From a virus (lineage: Duplodnaviria; Caudoviricetes), in IMG/VR virus record IMGVR_UViG_3300009648_000003, positions 39,943 to 103,942 of that record: 64,000 bases of DNA; one strand, 5' to 3'. Positions 6,715 to 27,188 of this stretch are shown in pieces (within the stretch, counting starts at the first letter, position 1; the number at the start of each line of letters is the position of its first letter). A program made the translations under genes and the position numbers. The notes beneath the pieces are model-generated. The model did no database searches. It was not told where the DNA came from and saw only the letters and a list, made by a program, of their open reading frames with translations.

Positions 6715-6744
6715 TAATATACGATTAAAATTAATTTATGAATA
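6715..6744 (-). promoter_or_regulatory. Putative middle-class phage promoter (TATTCA-N14-TCGTATATTA)
   Basis: One of 4 copies with identical spacing; directly downstream of a terminator. Confidence 0.75.
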
Positions 6745-14556: not shown

Positions 14557-14586
14557 AAATATACGAAATAGATAATAAATTGAATA
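14557..14586 (-). promoter_or_regulatory. Putative middle-class phage promoter (TATTCA-N14-TCGTATATTT)
   Basis: Same motif and spacing as 6715, 21465 and 26234. Confidence 0.72.
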
Positions 14587-16540: not shown

Positions 16541-16821
16541 ATTAAAGCCCCCCTCCTAAAGTCAGAATCACGTAACCCTTCATTGCAAGCTTCTTCATAA
16601 TTACTTGTAGCCATAAAATCCACACCATCTATTGTTAAATAGTAGAAATATTTATTATCATCCTCAACTGTATAATCATAATCTAAACGTACTTTTGATG
16701 AAAAGAACTTGGATAATTTTTTAATCCTGTCAACACTGATGTGTATATAATTTGAGCCTATAGCACCCATTTCTTCTCGAATTTTTAAATATAATTTAGC
16801 ATTTTCCAAAAAATTATACAT
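16531..16821 (-). CDS. Hypothetical protein
   Basis: Overlaps both neighbours. Confidence 0.6.
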   Translation of the reverse strand: MYNFLENAKLYLKIREEMGAIGSNYIHISVDRIKKLSKFFSSKVRLDYDYTVEDDNKYFYYLTIDGVDFMATSNYEEACNEGLRDSDFRRGALIWG

Positions 16822-18985
16822 CTTCTTCCCCCCATAGTTCTTTTAAATCATCTTCATTCATCTTTTGACCCCATCTTTCAGATATTTCTATATCAGATTT
16901 CATTCCACATTTTAGTGGAATTGCGTTGCACATAATCTCTGCAAATTCTTTCAAGGGCTCCATACCTAAATCTTCAGGTATATCCAGTATTATCTCATCA
17001 TGAACCCAGAGTAATATATTACAATCATATTTCTTGAGGGCGGGTTGTAAGTCTATAGTAGCCTTCTTAGTCATATCAGCAGCAGAGTTATGGCACATGA
17101 AATTAGATGCTATATAACTATGGTCCTCTGTAAATATCTCAATATCCATTGTAGGTCTTACACCTAAATCTTCAATACTAGTTATCTTTGTAAAACTAAT
17201 AGTATCTAATAGATAAATGAACCTATTAACTTCTTCTGTTTCCTCACACATTTTTAAATACTTTAAACAGGAGTCTTTTGTAGCACTACCTTGTTTAAAC
17301 CTATAAACATGACTTCGTTCACTTGCTGTCAGTTTTTTGAATAGTTCTTTATCCTTCCTTAGTACTTTATAAACATCCATTATTAAGTCTCTTGGAACTA
17401 ATGACCTAGTTTTTAAATTCAGGTACTTATTTAACCTATCTTGCTTATGCTTTATCTTAAACCCAATTAATTCATTAAATCGTTTATAAGAGTTTAAATC
17501 TACAAAAGTCCTGAACACACCTTCTTCAGTTTCTCTAAACCTAGCTCTAATTCCTAATGATTCTAATAACAAATACACTTTAAAACTCACATCTCTACTT
17601 ATAGAGGTAAACGTCAGAGTATTACTACTCCATCCACCATCTGCATTAAATAATCCTCTTAAAATCTGGCATCTTACATCAGTTGGAGCAGTTAAATACC
17701 ACTCAGGTATTATCTTGTTCTTACCTGATACTTGAGTTAACCCTAATTCTTTTAACATGTCTCTAAAGTTTTTATTATTAATTACTAATACATACGCCTC
17801 TCCCACACTACCTCTACTTCTTTCAATTTTCTGTTTTGTAAGATTATAATTAGTTCTCAAATAGCTATCTATTTCTTTTAAATATGATAGTTTTTTCCTA
17901 CCTCCACTTATACTTATATCTCTGTTGTTAGTATAAGAACCGTCACCTATAATAGCACCTAAAAACTCATGTATGGTCATATCATTATCAGTTACCGCTA
18001 CTTTTGGTGTGTAATTTGCAATAGCTATAATATCTCCTACCTTCAAACTTTCTAAAGGTACAAAGATTAACTCACCTTTATCATATATTGCAAATCTGTG
18101 TTCTGCGGTAGCATCTATTGAAGTGTGTAAAGTATTTAATCTATATAGCTTCTTCTCCCCACTATTCCATACTTTGTAATCTTTTGTTGTACCTGAAAAG
18201 GTTACTAACTCATGATTAGTAATATCTTTTATAGGCACATACCCCTCTGTAGTTAATATTGGAGTTTCAATATCTAAGCACCCTTGTATGGGTGAGTTCA
18301 TTCCTACTCTATAAGCTGATTCTAGTAGCCATTGTTGCCCTGAAGTTACTTCTGGGTACAACCTTCTTTTTCTTCCCAATAATGTCTCTACATACATTTT
18401 TTCTCTTACTTGTTTTTTAGTTTCTTCCATCCATTTTGCCACCCCAGGGTAAGTTTGCTTGTAAGATTGTATATACATCATTGCCTCTTCCTCAGTTATT
18501 TCTAAATTTTCTGCTAACCCTATAGGAGTAGTGCCATATACAATTGAAAAGTTAACTGCCTTAGCTTTACCTCTCATTTTTTCATACTCAAGACCTAGTT
18601 CTATTTCTTTTATAAGAGTATCTCTGTCTTTAGTTAAAATAATTCCTTCTTTTAATGCTCTATCTAGATGTATATCATCATCTATTTTTTTATAGTCAAT
18701 ATTACCATCTTTATCTCTAAAAGTTTCAGATACTTTCCTTAATCTTTGAAAAGTATCTATATCTGTTTTTTTATCTGGGAATTTATTATTCCATATTGTT
18801 ACAGCTGTAGTAGAATGTACATCTCCTCCAGTGGTAAATATTTCATACATTACCTTATCCCCTGAGATTTCTGTTAATATTCTTAACTCTTGACTGGAAA
18901 AATCCAAACTAGCCAATAATCTTCCTTCATCTGCAATAAAAGCGTTCCTGATTAAATTTGTGTAACTTGGTATCTGTTGTAAATT
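16814..18985 (-). CDS. polA: DNA polymerase family A, exon 2 (contains intein)
   Basis: NLQQIP, motif A DFSSQELRIL, motif B R.KAKAVNFSIVYG, NSPIQG|SAAD, motif C VHDEI. Confidence 0.93.
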   Translation of the reverse strand, partial: NLQQIPSYTNLIRNAFIADEGRLLASLDFSSQELRILTEISGDKVMYEIFTTGGDVHSTTAVTIWNNKFPDKKTDIDTFQRLRKVSETFRDKDGNIDYKKIDDDIHLDRALKEGIILTKDRDTLIKEIELGLEYEKMRGKAKAVNFSIVYGTTPIGLAENLEITEEEAMMYIQSYKQTYPGVAKWMEETKKQVREKMYVETLLGRKRRLYPEVTSGQQWLLESAYRVGMNSPIQGCLDIETPILTTEGYVPIKDITNHELVTFSGTTKDYKVWNSGEKKLYRLNTLHTSIDATAEHRFAIYDKGELIFVPLESLKVGDIIAIANYTPKVAVTDNDMTIHEFLGAIIGDGSYTNNRDISISGGRKKLSYLKEIDSYLRTNYNLTKQKIERSRGSVGEAYVLVINNKNFRDMLKELGLTQVSGKNKIIPEWYLTAPTDVRCQILRGLFNADGGWSSNTLTFTSISRDVSFKVYLLLESLGIRARFRETEEGVFRTFVDLNSYKRFNELIGFKIKHKQDRLNKYLNLKTRSLVPRDLIMDVYKVLRKDKELFKKLTASERSHVYRFKQGSATKDSCLKYLKMCEETEEVNRFIYLLDTISFTKITSIEDLGVRPTMDIEIFTEDHSYIASNFMCHNSAADMTKKATIDLQPALKKYDCNILLWVHDEIILDIPEDLGMEPLKEFAEIMCNAIPLKCGMKSDIEISERWGQKMNEDDLKELWGEEDV
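17087..18280 (-). mobile_element. Intein (398 aa) with LAGLIDADG homing endonuclease in polA
   Basis: PIQG|CLDIETPILT...AT.EH...FLGAIIGDG...LRGLFNADG...TMDIEI..HSYIASNFMCHN|SAAD. Confidence 0.95.
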
Positions 18986-19446
18986 CATCTCGTTGTAGAG
19001 GGTTATTTAATCCCCTCACCCTCGTTTCCGAGGGGATCGGACTATATCATTATCTTATAATCTGTTTGTACCTGCTGTAATTATCACGCAATCTAAAGTT
19101 CTCATAACCTACATACACCCAATCATAGAACTTTAAACTAATCCCCTACAGTCATCTCTAATTTAAGGTATATGTGGTGTTTACCCCTACTGTAATTGTT
19201 TTCTTTTAATAAATAATCTCTGGCGAACTCCATCCTCTCACCTCCCCTTCTTAAATATTCAGATTATAAGATATTGGGTGCTCGTGTTTTCCTCATCACT
19301 GGTCTAGTGGTACGAAATTAGTCTCTGAACCTTCTAGGTATCCCTACCTAGCTCGGCTGCTGATTACCCTCGACATCACTCGTTAGGGTTCCCAGCAATT
19401 CTCCCAATTTTCATTAGTAAGTCGCCTTACTATGCCCCAATCTTTT
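18986..19446 (-). mobile_element. Group I self-splicing intron (461 nt, IA-like) in polA
   Basis: Exon ends in U paired U.G in P1 (CCCU/AA with UUGGGG); intron ends in G. P AAUUGCUGGGAA, Q AAUCAGCAG, R UUCAGAGACUA, S GAUAUAGUCC; GNRA-capped P2/P6/P9; 13-bp P8. Splicing restores TGRMSSSNP-NLQQIP in frame. Confidence 0.95.
19050..19233 (-). pseudogene. Degenerate homing endonuclease remnant in intron P8 loop
   Basis: RBS GGGGAGGTGA + ATG gives 31 codons to TAG; the +1 frame continues SLKFYDWVYVGYENFRLRDNYSRYKQIIR*, resembling a LAGLIDADG C-terminus. Confidence 0.55.
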
Positions 19447-20799
19447 AGGGTTAGAACTACTCATTCTACCTGTATTTTTAATAGTAGAAAAGCTAGTATG
19501 AATTCTTCCATCTATAATTTGTTCTGGCAGTTTATCTGCAAAAGCATCTGTTAATTTTTTCTTTTGTCTGTATTCCATAATCATAGGAATTACTTCATGA
19601 TAATTTTTTAATTTTTTTAGTGTAGCTCTGTCTGTAGATTCAGGTTTCTTTTTATTTACTCTTGGCAATTTTAAATCTTCATATAATGCTTTAGATAGTT
19701 GTTGAGGTGAATTTAAATTTATTTCCCCTGTGTATTTATATATTTTTTTCGTAAGTTCATCTAATTCTTGATGAAGTTGGGGAGCTACTGTATTAACTAA
19801 ATAATCCTCATCTACTCTTATTCCTCTTTCCTCCACTTTTACTACTATATTTATAAATGGTATTTCTATATTAAAGTACAAATCATGCAATTTTTGTAAC
19901 TGAGGTGATTTTAAATGTTTAATTTGAAATTCATACATTTTATATGTTAATTCTGTGTCTTTAGCAGCATAGAATGTAGCCATGTTTCCTGTTTTATTTT
20001 TAGGATTAATTAAAATAGGAACTTGGTCGAACGTTATATTACCAAATAGAGTAGAGAAAGTATCACTGGGTATCTTTAAATAGTAAGTAGCCATATCCTT
20101 TAATGCTTTTGATTGTGTTTCATCTAATATAGCCTGAGCTATCATAGTATCAAAATAACAAACAGGTTTTGCTCCTATATATCTTCGTATTATGTGATAG
20201 TCAAAACCATAGTTATGGTATAATTGTTTTAAATCTTTCCTTTCTAATTGAGGTTTTAATTTATTTGCTACTAAACTTAAAGGTAAACATTTTACATAAT
20301 CTTCACCTAAAACCAATTTATTTCTCCCCCCGCCCTTTTTGTATTCAAGATAAGCTTCTTCATTATGTCTTATATCATCTTTGTGTTTTAAGGGTATATA
20401 ATAACCTTGGTGGGGGGCATAAAAAGAAATACCTACTATCTCATCCCTATATTTATCTACTCCTGTAGTTTCAGTATCTATTGCAACCATACTTAGCCCA
20501 CTTAACCATACAATTAATTCCTCTAAATCTTGTTCAGTCCATACAGTATTATAATGAAATGGTAATACTGTTTCATTTGACATTTTTATAATTTCTAATT
20601 CTTTCTTTTTAAAATTCTTCCTCTTAGCCCGTGCAAGAAAATTTTCTACTTCTTCGTCTGTGTTTAATGATGGAAATTTATCTTTAAACAAAGGATATAC
20701 TTCATCCAAATACCACTTTTCTTTAACTCTTAGCTTTCTCTTTCTTTTCTTTTTATTATTCTTATTTAGAATACTTTCAATCTCTTCATAAATATCCAT
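19447..20799 (-). CDS. polA: DNA polymerase family A, exon 1 (3'-5' exonuclease and start of polymerase domain)
   Basis: AIDTETTG, HN..FD, YAAKD, NLNSPQQL, TGRMSSSNP; 451 codons up to the 5' splice site. Confidence 0.93.
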
Positions 20800-21464: not shown

Positions 21465-21494
21465 TAATATACGAAGGAACCACCATAGTGAATA
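21465..21494 (-). promoter_or_regulatory. Putative middle-class phage promoter (TATTCA-N14-TCGTATATTA)
   Basis: Conserved motif upstream of ssb-polA. Confidence 0.75.
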
Positions 21495-21524
21495 AAAAAA
21501 AGAGGAAGAAAATTTTCTTCCTCT
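21494..21524 (-). terminator. Intrinsic terminator ending the primase-sigma unit
   Basis: Palindrome AGAGGAAGAAAATTTTCTTCCTCT followed by a T-tract. Confidence 0.75.
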
Positions 21525-22146
21525 AATCAAACCACTTCAAAACTATTTTTCTTACACGTAACCAATCCTTTGCTACTGTTGGTCTTGATACCCCCATCTT
21601 ATCCGCTATTTCCTGATGTGTATATCCAGCATATCTTAATTTTAATATTTTCTGTTCTCTTGGAGTTAATTTATCTTCTAAATCTGCAATCATTTTGGTA
21701 AATAATTTATATTCCGAAATTTCATCAGTAAGATTATGACTTAAATGTTGTATTTCAACTTTCTTATTTGATCGCTCAGTAGATGAACTAACTGATGTTT
21801 CACCTGTGCAGTATGTTATGATTTCAGCACAATAAGTATCATGTAAACCACTGAATCCCTGAAGTGTGGGTTGTGTCCATGAGTGTCTAATATGGTCTAT
21901 TATTGTATTTTCTATAATTTGTGTAAAATAAGTATTGGCAGTAGCTTTGCATGAGTCAAATTTTTTGTATGCTTTAAACACTTTTAACATAGCATCTTGC
22001 ATTACATCTTCTTCATCAATATAATTAGGCAATTTTACATTTTGAGTATGCAATTTATGATTACATAATTTCCTTGTTGCTAATAATAATTCATCTAACT
22101 CCCCCTCCGCCACCATTTCATTGAAAGTTCTTTTTGTTTCTTTCAT
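21523..22146 (-). CDS. Sigma-70 family sigma factor, ECF-like (regions 2 and 4 only)
   Basis: EEDVMQDA.LKV.....FD....A.TY...I..N..ID..R; LTPREQKIL.LRY.G.T.QEIA..MG.SR.TV. Confidence 0.85.
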   Translation of the reverse strand: MKETKRTFNEMVAEGELDELLLATRKLCNHKLHTQNVKLPNYIDEEDVMQDAMLKVFKAYKKFDSCKATANTYFTQIIENTIIDHIRHSWTQPTLQGFSGLHDTYCAEIITYCTGETSVSSSTERSNKKVEIQHLSHNLTDEISEYKLFTKMIADLEDKLTPREQKILKLRYAGYTHQEIADKMGVSRPTVAKDWLRVRKIVLKWFD

Positions 22147-23152
22147 AAAAATCCCTCCTGTAAAATTTTGAACTTATTAAATCATAGTAATAGTTCATGT
22201 ATGGCACCATTGTTATGTCATTTAACTTACCCCCTAATAATAAATCATTAGGGTCTTTGAACATAGTTTTATCTACTGTGTCAATTCCCCATTGAATAGG
22301 GTATTTAACTACATCCACTCTTATGGGTGTTTTTGATATAATTTTATAAGCATCTAAATTTCCTTTTACCCCCCACTCATCATTATCTAAAAATAACATT
22401 ACTTTAGTAATTCCAGCTAATTGTAATAATTTAAGTTGATTTTTTGATAAAGTTCTTCCCATTAATCCTACAGCAGGTAGCTTAGCTTCATAACATGATA
22501 ATACATCTATAGCACCTTCTACAATAAATACTTCTTTTACTTTACCATATAAGTAGTTTAATCCATATAGTGTTTTATGTTTAGGGGCACCTTTTGGAAT
22601 TTGATAGAATTTAGTGTTTACATCCCTCCTTATCACAAATAATGGATTTCCATGTAAATCCCTGACAGGAAAGACTATAGAATGATTTTTTTCATCATAC
22701 CCTATCTCATATTTTTGTAGTGTATAATCTGAAATACCTCTAGTTTCTATATAACTATGTTTCTTTTTTCGATAATTAAATATTTCTTCTTCAGTAACAC
22801 CCCCCTCTTGTGAATTATTTTCTGGGGCACTAAATGATAAATTAGCTGTTGCATAATTATTAATTATTTTTGCATACGCTTTCAAGTAATTAATTTGGAA
22901 TATATCTGCTATCAAAGTTATTAATTCTCCTGATGCCCCACAACTGAAACAATTGAATAAATAGGGATATTCTGTGCTTATTCCGAAAGAGGGTTTAGTC
23001 TCTTTGTGATATGGACAGCACATATTTATATTACTATAACCTATTTTTCTTTTAGTAAATGCAGTAGGGTTGTATTTATATTGTGGTGATTTTACCCATT
23101 CTGATTGTAAATCGTCCAATACTTCTTCTATATCTACATAGTATCTATCCAT
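22118..23152 (-). CDS. dnaG: DNA primase (Zn finger + TOPRIM)
   Basis: CPYH.E..PSF...FNCFSCG, IVEG.IDV, FLDND, KDPND; start reassigned to ATG 23152 (RBS AGAGGG). Confidence 0.9.
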   Translation of the reverse strand: MDRYYVDIEEVLDDLQSEWVKSPQYKYNPTAFTKRKIGYSNINMCCPYHKETKPSFGISTEYPYLFNCFSCGASGELITLIADIFQINYLKAYAKIINNYATANLSFSAPENNSQEGGVTEEEIFNYRKKKHSYIETRGISDYTLQKYEIGYDEKNHSIVFPVRDLHGNPLFVIRRDVNTKFYQIPKGAPKHKTLYGLNYLYGKVKEVFIVEGAIDVLSCYEAKLPAVGLMGRTLSKNQLKLLQLAGITKVMLFLDNDEWGVKGNLDAYKIISKTPIRVDVVKYPIQWGIDTVDKTMFKDPNDLLLGGKLNDITMVPYMNYYYDLISSKFYRRDFYERNKKNFQ

Positions 23153-23196
23153 ATAAAACAACCCTCTTTCTTTTCTATAATTTCTGTTCACATAAC

Positions 23197-23225
23197 ATAA
23201 TAGCACAACACTTGACATTTTTCAA
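23197..23225 (-). promoter_or_regulatory. SigA-type promoter P2 for primase-sigma (TTGAAA-N17-TATTAT, extended TG)
   Basis: Exact 17-bp spacer; -35 overlapped by inverted repeat ACTTGA-N6-TCAAGT. Confidence 0.6.
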
Positions 23226-23240
23226 GTATTTAAATAAAAT
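23212..23240 (+). promoter_or_regulatory. SigA-type antisense promoter (TTGACA-N17-TAAAAT)
   Basis: Near-perfect consensus on the + strand with no + strand gene downstream; faces the SOS-boxed promoter. Confidence 0.6.
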
Positions 23241-23249
23241 ATTTTGTAA

Positions 23250-23261
23250 GAACATATGTTT
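23250..23261. promoter_or_regulatory. LexA/DinR (SOS) box 1
   Basis: GAACATATGTTT matches the Gram-positive GAAC-N4-GTTY box; covers the predicted start site of P1. Confidence 0.7.
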
Positions 23262-23290
23262 ATTATATACTAAAACTTATGTTCTGTGAA
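23262..23290 (-). promoter_or_regulatory. SigA-type promoter P1 (TTCACA-N17-TATAAT) with SOS box 2 (GAACATAAGTTT, 23273-23284) in its spacer
   Basis: Read directly from the sequence; the two boxes bracket the -10. Confidence 0.7.
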
Positions 23291-23467
23291 GTCCTTTTCT
23301 TTTATTAAAATAGATATTCCTACTATAGAATTAAAATCATGACCTTGTAGACTTATAAATTCTTGTATATAATCTAACACTTCTGAAAAATTCATCTTTT
23401 TTGGCAGATGGATTTCTGAAGTATAGATTTCTTCTTCATTTATTGTATACATAAATGAGCATTTCAT
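23270..23467 (-). CDS. Hypothetical protein
   Basis: 65-aa ORF abutting the upstream gene. Confidence 0.5.
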   Translation of the reverse strand: MKCSFMYTINEEEIYTSEIHLPKKMNFSEVLDYIQEFISLQGHDFNSIVGISILIKEKDFTEHKF

Positions 23468-23743
23468 TTATAATACCTCTATACTCACAGAGGAAATATC
23501 ATAAGAATTGATTACATGTACTTCTTCATTTTCATCTATAAAAAATAAAGGTCTTTTTTTCTCCATATCTGTTGCAATTTTTTTAGAGTATTCAACTTGT
23601 ACTTCCTTATCAGTTAAGGATATTTCTTTTCTTTCCCCTGTTTCTTTATCTACTAAATAGCCTTTAGGATCTTTTTCTTTTACCACAATTTCTTTTTTAT
23701 CTTCATTCCTCATACTAAAATTGATTTTTAATCTTACTTCCAT
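23468..23743 (-). CDS. Hypothetical protein
   Basis: RBS GGGAGGAG. Confidence 0.65.
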   Translation of the reverse strand: MEVRLKINFSMRNEDKKEIVVKEKDPKGYLVDKETGERKEISLTDKEVQVEYSKKIATDMEKKRPLFFIDENEEVHVINSYDISSVSIEVL

Positions 23744-23802
23744 TTAATACTCCTCCCTTAATTTTTTTTAAAAAAATTATTTGTTTTCTATTATTTCTTC
23801 TC

Positions 23803-25059
23803 TTAAAAAGCTAATGTCTCTTCTTCTATCTCACCATAATAACCTTTATCTATATCTGCTCTTAAATACACATCTACATCTCTCTTCCCACCTCTATTCT
23901 TTTTTAAAGATAATTTAAAAATTTCATTGTTTATTAATCTTAATGTAATAACTTTTGTTGACTTTTGAGCAGGGGTATCTGACTCTTGAACCTGATATAT
24001 CTCGGGTGAAGCTTTTACATCCTTTTTTGCCTCTCTAGCAGATTCCCTCCCTGCTTGTGCTACCCAAATTATTGGAGTTCTTGTGTATAGATTTACATCT
24101 CTAATCTGGTTAGATACATTCACAATTCTTTTTCTTATATCTCTCTCACCTGTACCATCAGATAAGTCATACAATTGGTCTATAACTATAAGCCCTGGTT
24201 TTTCATTTTCTATAATACTTCTTATGTCAGTTGGTGTAAATGCTTTTCCTTTATTTGAATCCTCTGTTAGTATTAATAAACTATTTGATTTTTTCTCTAA
24301 TTCCATTAAATATTCTTTATATGCTTCAATATCTTGTAATTTTCCTTGATTTAACTCTGTATTGGAAAAATGAGCTCTTAGTGTATCTAACCTATAAGCG
24401 ACCTCTAGTTCAGGCATTTCTGTGGAAATATAAATCACAGGGATATTCATATTTGCTTTTAAAAAAGACCACCAAGCATGGTATGCAAAATACATACTCA
24501 TCATACTTTTACCTTCACCTAATCTTCCAGCAATTAAAATTAGGTCATCCTCTTTCCACCCACCAGTGAGTTCATCTAACTTATTAATACCAGTACTAAT
24601 ACCACTTAGTCCTTCTTTATTATGTGTTTCCAAATACTCTGCATATCTAAGACTTGCATCTTTTACCCAATCATATCTTTCAATTCTTCCTGTATAGGTT
24701 TTAGTTAGTTCTTCAAGACCTAATTTCATCTTATTGATAGCTTCAATTATCTGCCCATTTGCCACCATTTCAGCATTTTCTATAAGTAATGGTCTATATT
24801 CTACATATATTTTATTTTTTCTTATCACATCTACTAAATAAGGAATAGCATCCAACTCATCAATTATCTCAAAATCTTCAAATTTACTGGCTACAGTTTC
24901 AAGGGTGGGGAGAGATTTATTCATCATTATATAATCATTTATCCAATCAACTATATTAAAAGTAGAGATAAAAAAAGAAGTATCTAAATTATATTTTGCA
25001 AGAAAATTAGTGTCTTTACTATTAATATAATGATTGATAAGTTGAATTTCATCTCTCAT
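23803..25059 (-). CDS. dnaB: Replicative DNA helicase (DnaB/SF4)
   Basis: STGI..LD..TGG, GRLGEGKS, ISTEM, IVIDQL, AQAGR, KNRGG. Confidence 0.9.
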   Translation of the reverse strand: MRDEIQLINHYINSKDTNFLAKYNLDTSFFISTFNIVDWINDYIMMNKSLPTLETVASKFEDFEIIDELDAIPYLVDVIRKNKIYVEYRPLLIENAEMVANGQIIEAINKMKLGLEELTKTYTGRIERYDWVKDASLRYAEYLETHNKEGLSGISTGINKLDELTGGWKEDDLILIAGRLGEGKSMMSMYFAYHAWWSFLKANMNIPVIYISTEMPELEVAYRLDTLRAHFSNTELNQGKLQDIEAYKEYLMELEKKSNSLLILTEDSNKGKAFTPTDIRSIIENEKPGLIVIDQLYDLSDGTGERDIRKRIVNVSNQIRDVNLYTRTPIIWVAQAGRESAREAKKDVKASPEIYQVQESDTPAQKSTKVITLRLINNEIFKLSLKKNRGGKRDVDVYLRADIDKGYYGEIEEETLAF

Positions 25060-25778
25060 AGCCCCGCCCTCCTTGCTGATTTAACTCGTCTGTCATCACC
25101 CTTAAACTCTAAACCGATAGTGTTGTTTAATAGCCTTGAAACGTTTCTTGAACCCAAATTATCAGATTTTTTCAATTCAATAATACTTAAATTTGAAGTA
25201 TAAATAGTGGACAATCCATTATTTATTCTATTATTCATTATTATATAAGTTTGTTCTCTTGAGAAATCACTATTTGAACCTGAACCTACATCATCTATTA
25301 ATAACAAAGGAACCTGATTAATTAATCGTAATGTGTTTTGAACATAATCTTGATCTCGTCTGTACCTTAAATCATCAATTAAATCTGCATACACTATATA
25401 AAGACCTAAAGGATTTTCAAAATCGAATCGGCTAGTTAAACAAGATTTATAAATATAGTGATTTATTATAACACTTGCATTAAATGTTTTACCTGTTCCA
25501 GGTGAAGCCCCATAAAAGAAAAAGTTTGTACCACCTTCTACAGTTTCTATTATATTGTCAACTACTTTTTTTATTATTTTATAATTTTCTTGGTTATCTT
25601 TATCCACATCATAATTATATATGTTAGCTTCGATGTATATTTTTGGAATTCGAGATAATTTTAATGCTTCCTCTAATCTATATTTAGCACTACACCATGG
25701 ATTTTTACTACCTTGTACTTCACCTTTGTAAATTTTGCACCATTTCGTTGCTATACAATCTTTGCAATCTTCATACAC
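25056..25778 (-). CDS. DnaC/IstB-like AAA+ helicase loader
   Basis: N-terminal Cys cluster, G.SPGTGKT, LLIDDVG, R......TIYTSN, SRL, G.DRR. Confidence 0.88.
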   Translation of the reverse strand: MYEDCKDCIATKWCKIYKGEVQGSKNPWCSAKYRLEEALKLSRIPKIYIEANIYNYDVDKDNQENYKIIKKVVDNIIETVEGGTNFFFYGASPGTGKTFNASVIINHYIYKSCLTSRFDFENPLGLYIVYADLIDDLRYRRDQDYVQNTLRLINQVPLLLIDDVGSGSNSDFSREQTYIIMNNRINNGLSTIYTSNLSIIELKKSDNLGSRNVSRLLNNTIGLEFKGDDRRVKSARRAGL

Positions 25779-25779
25779 C

Positions 25780-26208
25780 TTACCACCCCAATTCCTCTAT
25801 CTGTTTATCCCAATCATCAAGGTTTTCAGGTTCATTTTTTACTTCTTTCTTATAACTAGGTAACTTTCCAGTTGTAACATAATTATCAAGAACTGTTTGT
25901 GAATAATTGGAACAAAAAATTCTAAGAGTTTTTGTCTCAAAAAAATCAAGATCCATAAAAATTTCCATATAATCTTTTATAGTTTCTTTACTTTTTATCT
26001 TTAAAATTCTTTTTAACTGTTTTAAATCCCCTTTATTCAGTACATAAGGTTTTTTAAACTTTTGTTGATATAAATATTCAAAATATTTTGCAAATACATG
26101 CAAATTCCATTCTTCTACTTTATCATCAAAAGTTACTTTCTTCTTTGTTTTAGTTTTACTCTCTTTTTCTACTTCCAAAGACTCTTCAATAATTTTTGGT
26201 AACTCCAT
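25780..26208 (-). CDS. Hypothetical replication protein (upstream of loader)
   Basis: Helical ORF with RBS GGAGGG at the head of the loader-helicase operon; function inferred from position only. Confidence 0.55.
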   Translation of the reverse strand: MELPKIIEESLEVEKESKTKTKKKVTFDDKVEEWNLHVFAKYFEYLYQQKFKKPYVLNKGDLKQLKRILKIKSKETIKDYMEIFMDLDFFETKTLRIFCSNYSQTVLDNYVTTGKLPSYKKEVKNEPENLDDWDKQIEELGW

Positions 26209-26233: not shown

Positions 26234-26263
26234 TAATATACGAAATAAACCTATAAATGAATA
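26234..26263 (-). promoter_or_regulatory. Putative middle-class phage promoter (TATTCA-N14-TCGTATATTA)
   Basis: Shares TTCACTCTTAATATACGA with the 6715 copy. Confidence 0.75.
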
Positions 26264-26315: not shown

Positions 26316-26345
26316 ATTATGTGAATGATAGATAGGAGGATTATT

Positions 26346-27188
26346 ATGTTAGAAAAATTTTTAAATCATCTTGAGATAGAAAAAAATTATTCAAAAAATA
26401 CTATTGAAGCTTACAGAGCTGATCTTGAGCAATTTTTAAATTTCATATACAAAGATATAAAAGAAGTAACTAGATATGATATTTTGAATTTCTTAAAATA
26501 TTTAAAAATTCAAGGCTATAGCCCCACCACATCCAATAGAAAATTAGCCTCCATTAAATCTTTTTACAGATTCCTTATGCTGGAAGGTGAAGTAAATGTC
26601 AATCCTGCTGAATTGGTGGAATCTGCAAAAGTTGAAAGAACGTTACCAAGAATAGTATCTTTAGATGAATATCAAAAAATTATGAGCTTAATTGATAATC
26701 TAGAAGATAGGGCTTTAATTGAGTTACTATTTACAACGGGTATCAGGAGAGAAGAAGCAGTACACTTAAAAAGAAGTGATTTTGACTTTAACTTAGGGAT
26801 ACTAAAAGTAAATGGTAAAGGTAAAAAAGAAAGAGTCATCCCAATTATAACTAATATTATGCCAAATGTAGTTTTGTGGCTAAATCAACATGATGAAGAA
26901 TGGGTGTTCCCCTCAAAAGTAAAAAAAGGAGAACCTAATACAGTAAGATGGGTAAACAAAGTTGTGAGAAAATGGGCGGATAAGGCAGGATATAATGATA
27001 TTACCCCTCACTCCTTCCGCCACTCTTTTGGAACTTATCTGTATGAAAATGGTGCAGATGTGAAAGCTATCCAAGAAATGTTAGGGCATGAATCTATAGA
27101 CACAACTAATATCTATGCACAAAGCTCCATTAAAAGAAACAAACAGGAACTTCTTAAAGCACACCCTTTAATAAAGAGACTTGAATAA
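26346..27188 (+). CDS. XerC/XerD-like tyrosine recombinase
   Basis: N-terminal S.NT..AY..DL, catalytic TGIR, GKG.K.R, HSFRH, LGH, T.IY; start at 26346 by RBS. Confidence 0.93.
   Translation: MLEKFLNHLEIEKNYSKNTIEAYRADLEQFLNFIYKDIKEVTRYDILNFLKYLKIQGYSPTTSNRKLASIKSFYRFLMLEGEVNVNPAELVESAKVERTLPRIVSLDEYQKIMSLIDNLEDRALIELLFTTGIRREEAVHLKRSDFDFNLGILKVNGKGKKERVIPIITNIMPNVVLWLNQHDEEWVFPSKVKKGEPNTVRWVNKVVRKWADKAGYNDITPHSFRHSFGTYLYENGADVKAIQEMLGHESIDTTNIYAQSSIKRNKQELLKAHPLIKRLE

Follow-up and report, generated by a model that had tools for sequence, protein, structure and literature searches.

The stretch analysed here, which we call the window, is 64,000 nucleotides (nt) long and corresponds to bases 39943-103942 of IMG/VR record IMGVR_UViG_3300009648_000003, a 103,942-bp virus with direct terminal repeats. 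Within the replication module of this phage, at the 118-nt gap that separates an open reading frame (ORF) at 23270-23467 from the primase ATG at 23152, we identified two tandem promoters, designated P1 and P2, and two putative operators of the host LexA repressor (Cheo boxes A and B) on P1. We conclude that this is likely an SOS-responsive tandem promoter placed before the primase-sigma-SSB-PolA operon of a 104-kb temperate Bacillota phage. As judged by comparison with related phages, the predicted P1 with its SOS boxes and the predicted tandem P2 are real, conserved features. Their parts are:

23285-23290, minus strand: -35 element of P1, TTCACA (P1 is an 11/12 promoter match)
23273-23284, minus strand: LexA (Cheo) box A, GAACATAAGTTT, inside the 17-nt spacer of P1
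23262-23267, minus strand: -10 element of P1, TATAAT, separated from the -35 by the 17-nt spacer
23250-23261, plus strand: LexA (Cheo) box B, GAACATATGTTT, abutting the P1 -10 (minus-strand reading AAACATATGTTC)
23197-23225, minus strand: P2, TTGAAA-N17-TGcTATTAT, with the -35 at 23225-23220, the -10 TATTAT at 23202-23197 and a TG extended -10
23186-23194, minus strand: TATGTGAAC element right after the P2 -10, the one good repeat copy in the window

Read along the minus strand, TTCACA is followed by box A, TAGTA, TATAAT, box B, 24 A/T-rich bases and then P2, the two promoters standing in tandem with 65 nt from -35 to -35. Box A fills most of the P1 spacer. Box B begins immediately behind the -10 and spans about -6 to +6 of the predicted start, so that both overlap core promoter elements. 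The Cheo box, GAAC-N4-GTTC, is the LexA motif of Bacillus subtilis and Clostridium and is found phylum-wide (PMC4234289). Both phage boxes match it with one mismatch each (final C to T) around an A/T-rich centre, and the T variant is accepted by the clostridial LexA search motif GAACnnnnGTTT (PMC4234289). The initial annotation of this region had proposed P1 as TTCACA-N17-TATAAT on the minus strand, SOS boxes in its spacer and over its start, and a second minus-strand promoter, TTGAAA-N17-TATTAT; all of these are present where it had placed them, and the boxes and P2 are conserved in relatives. It had also described three overlapping promoters, and although all three matches exist, P1 and P2 are arranged in tandem and only P2 overlaps the third, a plus-strand match considered below.

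The boxes were scored with a weight matrix built from 19 operators of the candidate host clade, all extracted from in front of its lexA and recA genes. Box B scored 13.8 bits and box A 13.6, ranking second and third among ~104,000 positions, with the next site at 10.5; the background for sites of at least 13.6 bits is about one per 35 kb in the phage genome. The pattern GAAC-N4-GTTY occurs three times in the 64 kb, against 2.65 expected, and two of these three sit 23 bp apart in this intergenic region. Allowing for up to one mismatch, every other Cheo match in the 104-kb genome lies inside an ORF, leaving the two boxes as the only intergenic ones. The top-ranked Cheo-like site, TAGAACATTTGTTCTA (15.3 bits; genome 12471-12486, outside the window), is itself inside a 322-amino acid minus-strand ORF (genome 11937-12905) with no obvious promoter near, and may be either chance or an internal SOS-controlled start.

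Simple counts would fit the view that all of these features are chance matches in A+T-rich intergenic DNA and that the primase operon depends simply on read-through from the preceding genes. Genome-wide, Cheo-like sites with no more than one mismatch are at expectation (22 vs ~26), promoter-like matches are not enriched as a class (38 in 5 kb, vs 32.8 +/- 5.8 in shuffles), 11/12 promoter matches number 13 genome-wide against 9.2 expected, and a perfect 6+6 inverted repeat arises in 37% of random 104-mers of the same composition; moreover, there is no terminator between the upstream genes and P1. Because the class as a whole, the 11/12 count and the 6+6 repeats all occur at chance frequency, hexamer matches and a palindrome alone prove nothing. 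Chance does not, however, account for two high-ranking boxes 23 bp apart at the sole intergenic location, for a promoter-and-box layout found in 9 of 12 lineages though the flanks have diverged to 37-46% identity, or for two loci (L002 and L028) that share an identical P1-P2 block beneath unrelated upstream DNA. We regard the chance-only explanation as refuted by these comparative sequence data and give it almost no credence.

The comparison rests on primase homologues gathered from IMG/VR, JGI/ENA metagenomes and GTDB genomes. Five near lineages, with 68-70% primase identity, are represented by the window, L002/L028/L029, L003/L032, L005/L031 and L009, and P1 is kept in all five. In the four relatives it takes the form -35, 3 nt, GAAC-N4-GTTC/T, 2 nt, -10. 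Among relatives near and far, TTTACA, TTGACT, TTTAAA and TTGACA are found as equivalents of the -35 and TATAAT, TACAAT and TAAAAT as equivalents of the -10; in the window, box A lies 3 nt nearer the -35 than in the relatives, with the 17-nt spacer preserved. Mean pairwise identity is 0.71 over the P1 29-mer, compared with 0.46 and 0.37 over the flanking 29 nt. L009 also carries a second box, GGACATATGTTC, exactly where box B sits. In L002 and L028 the DNA is unrelated from ~20 nt upstream of the -35, and the identity of the block below that point argues that it travels with the primase operon. The initial annotation had correctly placed the upstream half of the control region within the last codons of ORF 23270-23467, where the P1 -35 and box A indeed lie. 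Judged from the relatives, this overlap is incidental, because the homologous ORF in L003 stops before the -35 and L002/L028 have different DNA upstream.

More distant phages, with 38-41% primase identity, carry variations on the same layout. A GAAC-N4-GTTC/T box in the P1 spacer is found in L051 and L052 as well as in L002, L003, L005 and L009, the two far loci reading TTGACA-ATA-[GAACATACGTTC]-TG-TATAAT and TTGACA-AC-[GAACGTTTGTTC]-TAT-TAAAAT, respectively; L052 has a second box, CGAACACGTGTTC, 28 nt after the first (40 nt start to start). In L039 and L040 a CGAAC...GTTC box follows right after an extended -10, and L039 has a second box downstream, as in L052. L053 retains a degenerate box of 11.8 bits, and L041 has a box-in-spacer promoter as well, but 1.3 kb upstream of the primase. 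Altogether, a site of at least 13.6 bits lies within 230 nt upstream of the primase in 9 of the 12 lineages, in keeping with a LexA operator retained at the orthologous position, while primase relatives at or below 32% identity have no such site at that position. Absence of the boxes from related phages had been named in the initial annotation among the grounds for abandoning its reading; on examination, they are conserved.

The best candidate for the LexA that would act here comes from a metagenome-assembled genome (MAG) titled 'Bacillota bacterium', which contains a contig 99% identical to the window. This MAG has lexA and recA, with CGAACATATGTTTG upstream of the former and AGAACTTATGTTCG upstream of the latter, and the box B 12-mer is, letter for letter, the core of its lexA operator. 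The eight lexA loci inspected, from this MAG and its relatives, each carry one to three such boxes (8/8). The phage boxes are therefore alike to the lexA and recA operators of a host that is linked to the phage by binning only. Around the integrase gene, the MAG copy runs collinear with the free phage, with no integration junction found, and no phage relatives were found in 39 genomes of the MAG's order.

The same dyads could in principle be operators of a phage regulator, either a SpoIIID-like protein or an unrecognised repressor, instead of host LexA. The phage does encode a SpoIIID homologue, SpoIIID sites in B. subtilis contain RRACA, and GAACA fits this core of the consensus. In addition, the phage genome has no HTH_3, Peptidase_S24 or LexA_DNA_bind matches, in a search limited to these repressor models, and with no CI-type repressor found it can be argued that some unrecognised regulator must exist. 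What does not vary among relatives, however, is GAAC and GTTC set 4 nt apart, and the fifth base is A or G (GAACG in L052; CG before GTTC in L051), which fits the Cheo consensus better than an invariant ACA. The identity of box B with the candidate host's lexA operator core also speaks for LexA, as does the persistence of the motif in relatives of 33-47% G+C and 38-41% primase identity, which is expected of a conserved host factor and not of phage-specific immunity. The lack of a LexA_DNA_bind match likewise leaves the phage with no LexA-type domain that might claim the boxes. Ownership of the boxes by a phage regulator thus appears very improbable, and host LexA remains our preferred ligand.

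P2 has a 17-nt spacer that ends in TGC, and its -10 is followed by GT and then TATGTGAAC. All four near relatives have a P2, in which TTGnnn stands 17 nt from a -10 that is of the TG extended type in three cases. P2 begins 64-65 nt after P1 in four of the five lineages, L003 carrying a 10-nt duplication. Among the far relatives, L051 has a second promoter, TTGACA-N17-TATAGT, after the first. A matrix scan found no LexA-like site above 3 bits in or after P2 in any lineage's P2 region, and on the same scores we rejected the idea that TATGTGAAC is a degenerate LexA half-site. Since P2 lacks a LexA-type dyad, something else must restrain it in a lysogen. In L002, L005 and L009 a direct repeat, ATGTGAAC-N7-ATGTGAAC or similar, occupies about +1 to +25 of P2, and a similar TATGTGAAT follows the -10 of the promoter of a Xer-like recombinase gene (26318-26326, plus strand). 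The TATGTGAAC 8-mer is not enriched, with 6 copies genome-wide against roughly 4 estimated from base composition. The ATGTGAAC repeats may be a candidate operator for a P2 regulator or simply a conserved start region.

The initial annotation had gone further and interpreted the region as a lysis-lysogeny switch based on antisense transcription or transcriptional interference, drawing on two additional features:

23212-23240, plus strand: antisense promoter match, TTGACA-N17-TAAAAT, with the -35 at 23212-23217 and the -10 at 23235-23240, inside and just upstream of P2
23210-23227, both strands: palindrome ACTTGA-N6-TCAAGT, formed by the -35 boxes of P2 and of the antisense match, unique in the genome

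Both exist as sequences, including the back-to-back arrangement of the -35 boxes, but the antisense match is neither conserved nor above chance level in the genome, and the palindrome is lineage-specific and likewise at chance level. In the proposed three-promoter switch, the antisense promoter would fire head-on into P1 and compete with P2, so that interference or antisense RNA would set the choice between lysis and lysogeny, with LexA as an input. Taken by itself the match is a good one: it is 11/12 with an ideal 17-nt spacer, it is among the two best promoter matches in 5 kb, and with only 13 such matches on both strands of the 104-kb genome, finding one in a given 100 nt has a chance of ~0.5% under a uniform model. 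That total is, however, the chance-level count given above, the region is ~80% A+T, and the palindrome that creates the antisense -35 is itself at chance level. No antisense-strand promoter of 10/12 or better occurs at any position in L002, L003, L005 or L009, all of which keep P1 and P2, and the palindrome is not in any of these four near relatives. Immunity determinants often vary between related phages, and the lack of conservation is not in itself fatal, but the plus-strand side downstream of the match also has no ORF, Rfam family or terminator. Box B, moreover, would span roughly +4 to +15 of the antisense transcript, where LexA would repress both convergent promoters; closing the two together would not produce a bistable interference switch.

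The pR/pL pair of coliphage 186 is a convergent-promoter interference switch in which both promoters drive genes and are conserved. On paper our region resembles it, having face-to-face promoters ~15 bp apart near an SOS input; unlike in 186, the antisense promoter here has no gene, terminator or conservation, and a pair of face-to-face promoters that each yield a product and are both conserved was not found. Judged from these comparisons, the antisense match is probably not functional and the palindrome is probably chance, and we consider the three-promoter switch unlikely. A striking antisense promoter and palindrome in A+T-rich DNA can thus fail a simple conservation test.

Other structural candidates in the region were set aside. 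A 14-nt inverted repeat (13/14 complementary; 23187-23200 and 23277-23290) joins the P1 -35 and the left half of box A with the stretch right after the P2 -10, but it was dropped as a structural element because relatives do not keep it. An Rfam search of 22900-23800 returned nothing at E <= 1. An RNA element in the P1 leader was dropped, the predicted fold being not significant (z = -0.98), as was an origin or iteron, since 23100-23400 contains no direct repeats.

The genes around the tandem promoter form the replication module of a genome of ~30% G+C in which nearly all genes lie on the minus strand:

25780-26208, minus strand: DnaD-like protein, first in the order of the module
25056-25778, minus strand: DnaC-like loader, after the DnaD-like protein
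23803-25059, minus strand: DnaB helicase, after the DnaC-like loader
23468-23743, minus strand: small ORF between DnaB and ORF 23270-23467
23270-23467, minus strand: 65-amino acid ORF with the tail ...T-E-H-K-F-stop, its last codons overlapping the P1 -35 and box A
23162-23169, minus strand: primase ribosome-binding site, AAAGAGGG, 9 nt before the ATG, as read from the sequence
22118-23152, minus strand: DnaG-type primase, the first gene after P1/P2 (Pfam Zn_ribbon_DnaG and Toprim; PHROG 47, E = 1.8e-45)
21523-22146, minus strand: phage sigma factor of 207 amino acids with regions 2 and 4, the second gene of the operon

Relatives have G-rich sites at the place equivalent to the primase ribosome-binding site. 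The operon behind P1/P2 comprises the primase, the phage sigma factor, SSB and PolA, a split family-A DNA polymerase; beyond it lie a Cas4-like nuclease, a methyltransferase, a UvsX-like recombinase and ribonucleotide reductase. Primase is followed by sigma in each of the 13 clade loci and also in Brevibacillus phage Jenst (KT151955.1; 32% primase identity), where helicase, primase, sigma and polymerase follow one another. The two small ORFs upstream of P1 received no family assignment, and their Protein Atlas scores (<0.85) were uninformative.

The presence of the primase-sigma pair behind P1/P2 is of interest because of a second promoter-like motif, ATTCA-N15-CGTATATT, which has eight copies in the genome:

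Window 6715-6744, 14557-14586, 21465-21494 and 26234-26263, minus strand: ATTCA-N15-CGTATATT, each oriented with the downstream gene
Genome 16482, 16547 and 37051, plus strand, and 19208, minus strand: ATTCA-N15-CGTATATT, outside the window

These copies precede mostly replication and nucleotide-metabolism genes (the DnaD-like/DnaC/DnaB operon, the SSB gene, the methyltransferase gene and others), and one copy immediately behind the sigma gene is retained in L002/L028 and L003. The motif is probably read by one of the two sigma factors that the phage encodes. Given the sigma gene in the operon and the eight copies, P1 is probably an entry point for the SOS signal into a sigma-driven replication programme. 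The arrangement is suggestive, but no demonstration, of a sigma factor that is expressed from P1/P2 and then activates the other replication genes.

A working model for the tandem promoter follows. In an undamaged cell, LexA dimers on the boxes would keep RNA polymerase off P1, a near-consensus sigma-A promoter. DNA damage would activate RecA and lead to self-cleavage of LexA, whereupon P1 would fire and transcribe the primase, sigma factor, SSB and polymerase genes. P2 would provide LexA-independent expression, either early in infection or under a phage regulator, whose target may be the conserved ATGTGAAC repeats located where P2 starts.

Several points weigh against this model. We infer LexA binding to P1 and its SOS induction from sequence, and the same is true of the role of P2 and of the link between sigma factor and motif. 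LexA, lacking a site at P2, could not silence the operon by itself, and with no terminator between DnaB and P1, read-through from upstream is possible. Neither phage box has the flanking C and G, and both fall below the host operators in score (13.6-13.8 bits, against a training minimum of 15.0 and median of 19.4). L009 alone retains box B in its position, and any box is absent in L042-L044, L047 and L004/L030. Finally, the host link is weak, consisting of metagenomic binning of unintegrated phage contigs. A bolder version holds that across the whole clade, tailed phages of roughly 100 kb in anaerobic, spore-forming Bacillota, host LexA is the primary lysogeny repressor in the absence of CI, that one promoter gates the sigma factor and through it a cascade that turns DNA damage into replication from about eight phage-specific promoters, and that the antisense promoter sharpens the switch in this lineage; we consider that version doubtful, and hold to the more limited SOS-responsive tandem promoter.

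Two loci merit separate description. In L004/L030, where the P1-P2 block is gone, a 421-amino acid ORF (L030:187-1452) lies directly upstream of the primase. By eye it reads like IscB, with an apparent RuvC-like motif, an arginine-rich helix and an HNH motif, and a 12-bp stem-loop separates it from the primase start. In Jenst (L034:780-850), a consensus Cheo box, CGAACAAAGGTTCG, directly follows TTGACG-N18-TAATAT; the genes for helicase, primase, sigma-24 and PolI lie downstream, and the box overlaps the start of the annotated small coding sequence JENST_144. The comparative-genomics paper on Jenst-like phages makes no mention of LexA; it describes several sigma factors and, close to the replication genes, a phage-specific motif (PMC4909266).

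Turning to the genome at large, a large serine integrase (E = 1.2e-117) is encoded outside the replication module, for which reason the phage looks temperate. The genome also encodes the second sigma factor, the SpoIIID homologue (Pfam E = 3.6e-34) and a MazF-like protein, and together with the integrase these make a temperate phage of a spore-forming Bacillota host most likely. We dropped the idea of a phage-plasmid, as searches for the markers ParA (AAA_31) and ParB_N gave no matches. Blastn of 22100-25100 against phage records also found no match, and the nearest isolated phages by protein, Jenst, SecTim467 and EZ-2018a, are only 32% identical. The only long plus-strand gene in the window (26325-27188), divergent from the replication module, encodes a XerC/D-like tyrosine recombinase in which the catalytic R, HxxR, H and Y are apparently present; it coexists with the large serine integrase, and its candidate roles are dimer resolution, a second integrase or a regulator. 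The family-A DNA polymerase is divided between two ORFs (window 16814-20799) with a 425-nt gap between them, and the second of these contains an inserted segment matching unrelated PHROG families.

A phage promoter operated by LexA is an already-known type. GIL01, a tectivirus of Bacillus thuringiensis, has tandem sigma-A promoters, P1 and P2, before its replication and regulation genes; LexA and gp7 repress the weak P1 via the canonical dinBox1 and the weaker half-site dinBox1b, gp1 represses the strong P2, and the DNA damage response comes from P1 only (PMC4551915, PMC11511902). Reading the GIL01 sequence directly, we found a -10, the box CGAACAAGCGTTT, a GTTCG half-site and then P2, the same order of parts as here. 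Both phages have two close sense promoters with LexA sites at the upstream one only; in GIL01 and, as predicted, in our phage, that promoter alone is under host LexA through two Cheo-type sites and P2 is LexA-independent. No CI-type repressor is known in GIL01, and none was found here with the HTH_3 and Peptidase_S24 models. Unlike in GIL01, where the boxes lie downstream of the P1 start, one box here lies in the spacer and one over the start, and the operon includes a sigma factor. Nor is there homology: GIL01 is a 15-kb linear tectivirus plasmid-prophage, whereas ours is a 104-kb tailed phage with a serine integrase. Tblastn of gp1 (P2 repressor), gp6 (LexA-like activator) and gp7 (LexA co-repressor) against the whole genome gave only E > 0.2, and thus neither a phage-encoded gp7 co-repressor nor a gp1-type P2 repressor was detected by this method, although proteins of 50-66 amino acids diverge fast and functional analogues may be present. 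The best reading is that the region is analogous, not homologous, to GIL01 P1/P2.

A second comparison is pBtic235, a 235-kb plasmid-prophage of B. thuringiensis with its own sigma factor and a single LexA operator locus identified by a Cheo-box search, through which SOS and LexA influence induction (PMC9700832). Like it, our phage would be a large temperate Bacillota phage with its own sigma factor and a single LexA operator locus controlling one operon; unlike here, the LexA-controlled operon of pBtic235 is not reported as primase plus sigma, and the two are unrelated in sequence. Plasmid records likewise returned no Megablast match to the L051 or L039 locus. The boxes share with Bacillota chromosomal SOS promoters the same dyad, the 4-nt spacing, the A/T-rich centre, the overlap with core elements and the presence of several boxes per promoter, but differ in that they would control phage replication and transcription genes and not repair genes.

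The principle seen in GIL01, a 15-kb tectivirus, is that host LexA is borrowed at the first of a pair of tandem promoters. The tandem promoter described here would extend it to 100-kb tailed phages that are not related to GIL01, which points to convergent evolution of the layout. The region would also put a phage-encoded sigma factor immediately under the SOS signal, and it offers a testable control point for the induction of uncultured large temperate Bacillota phages from bioreactor metagenomes.

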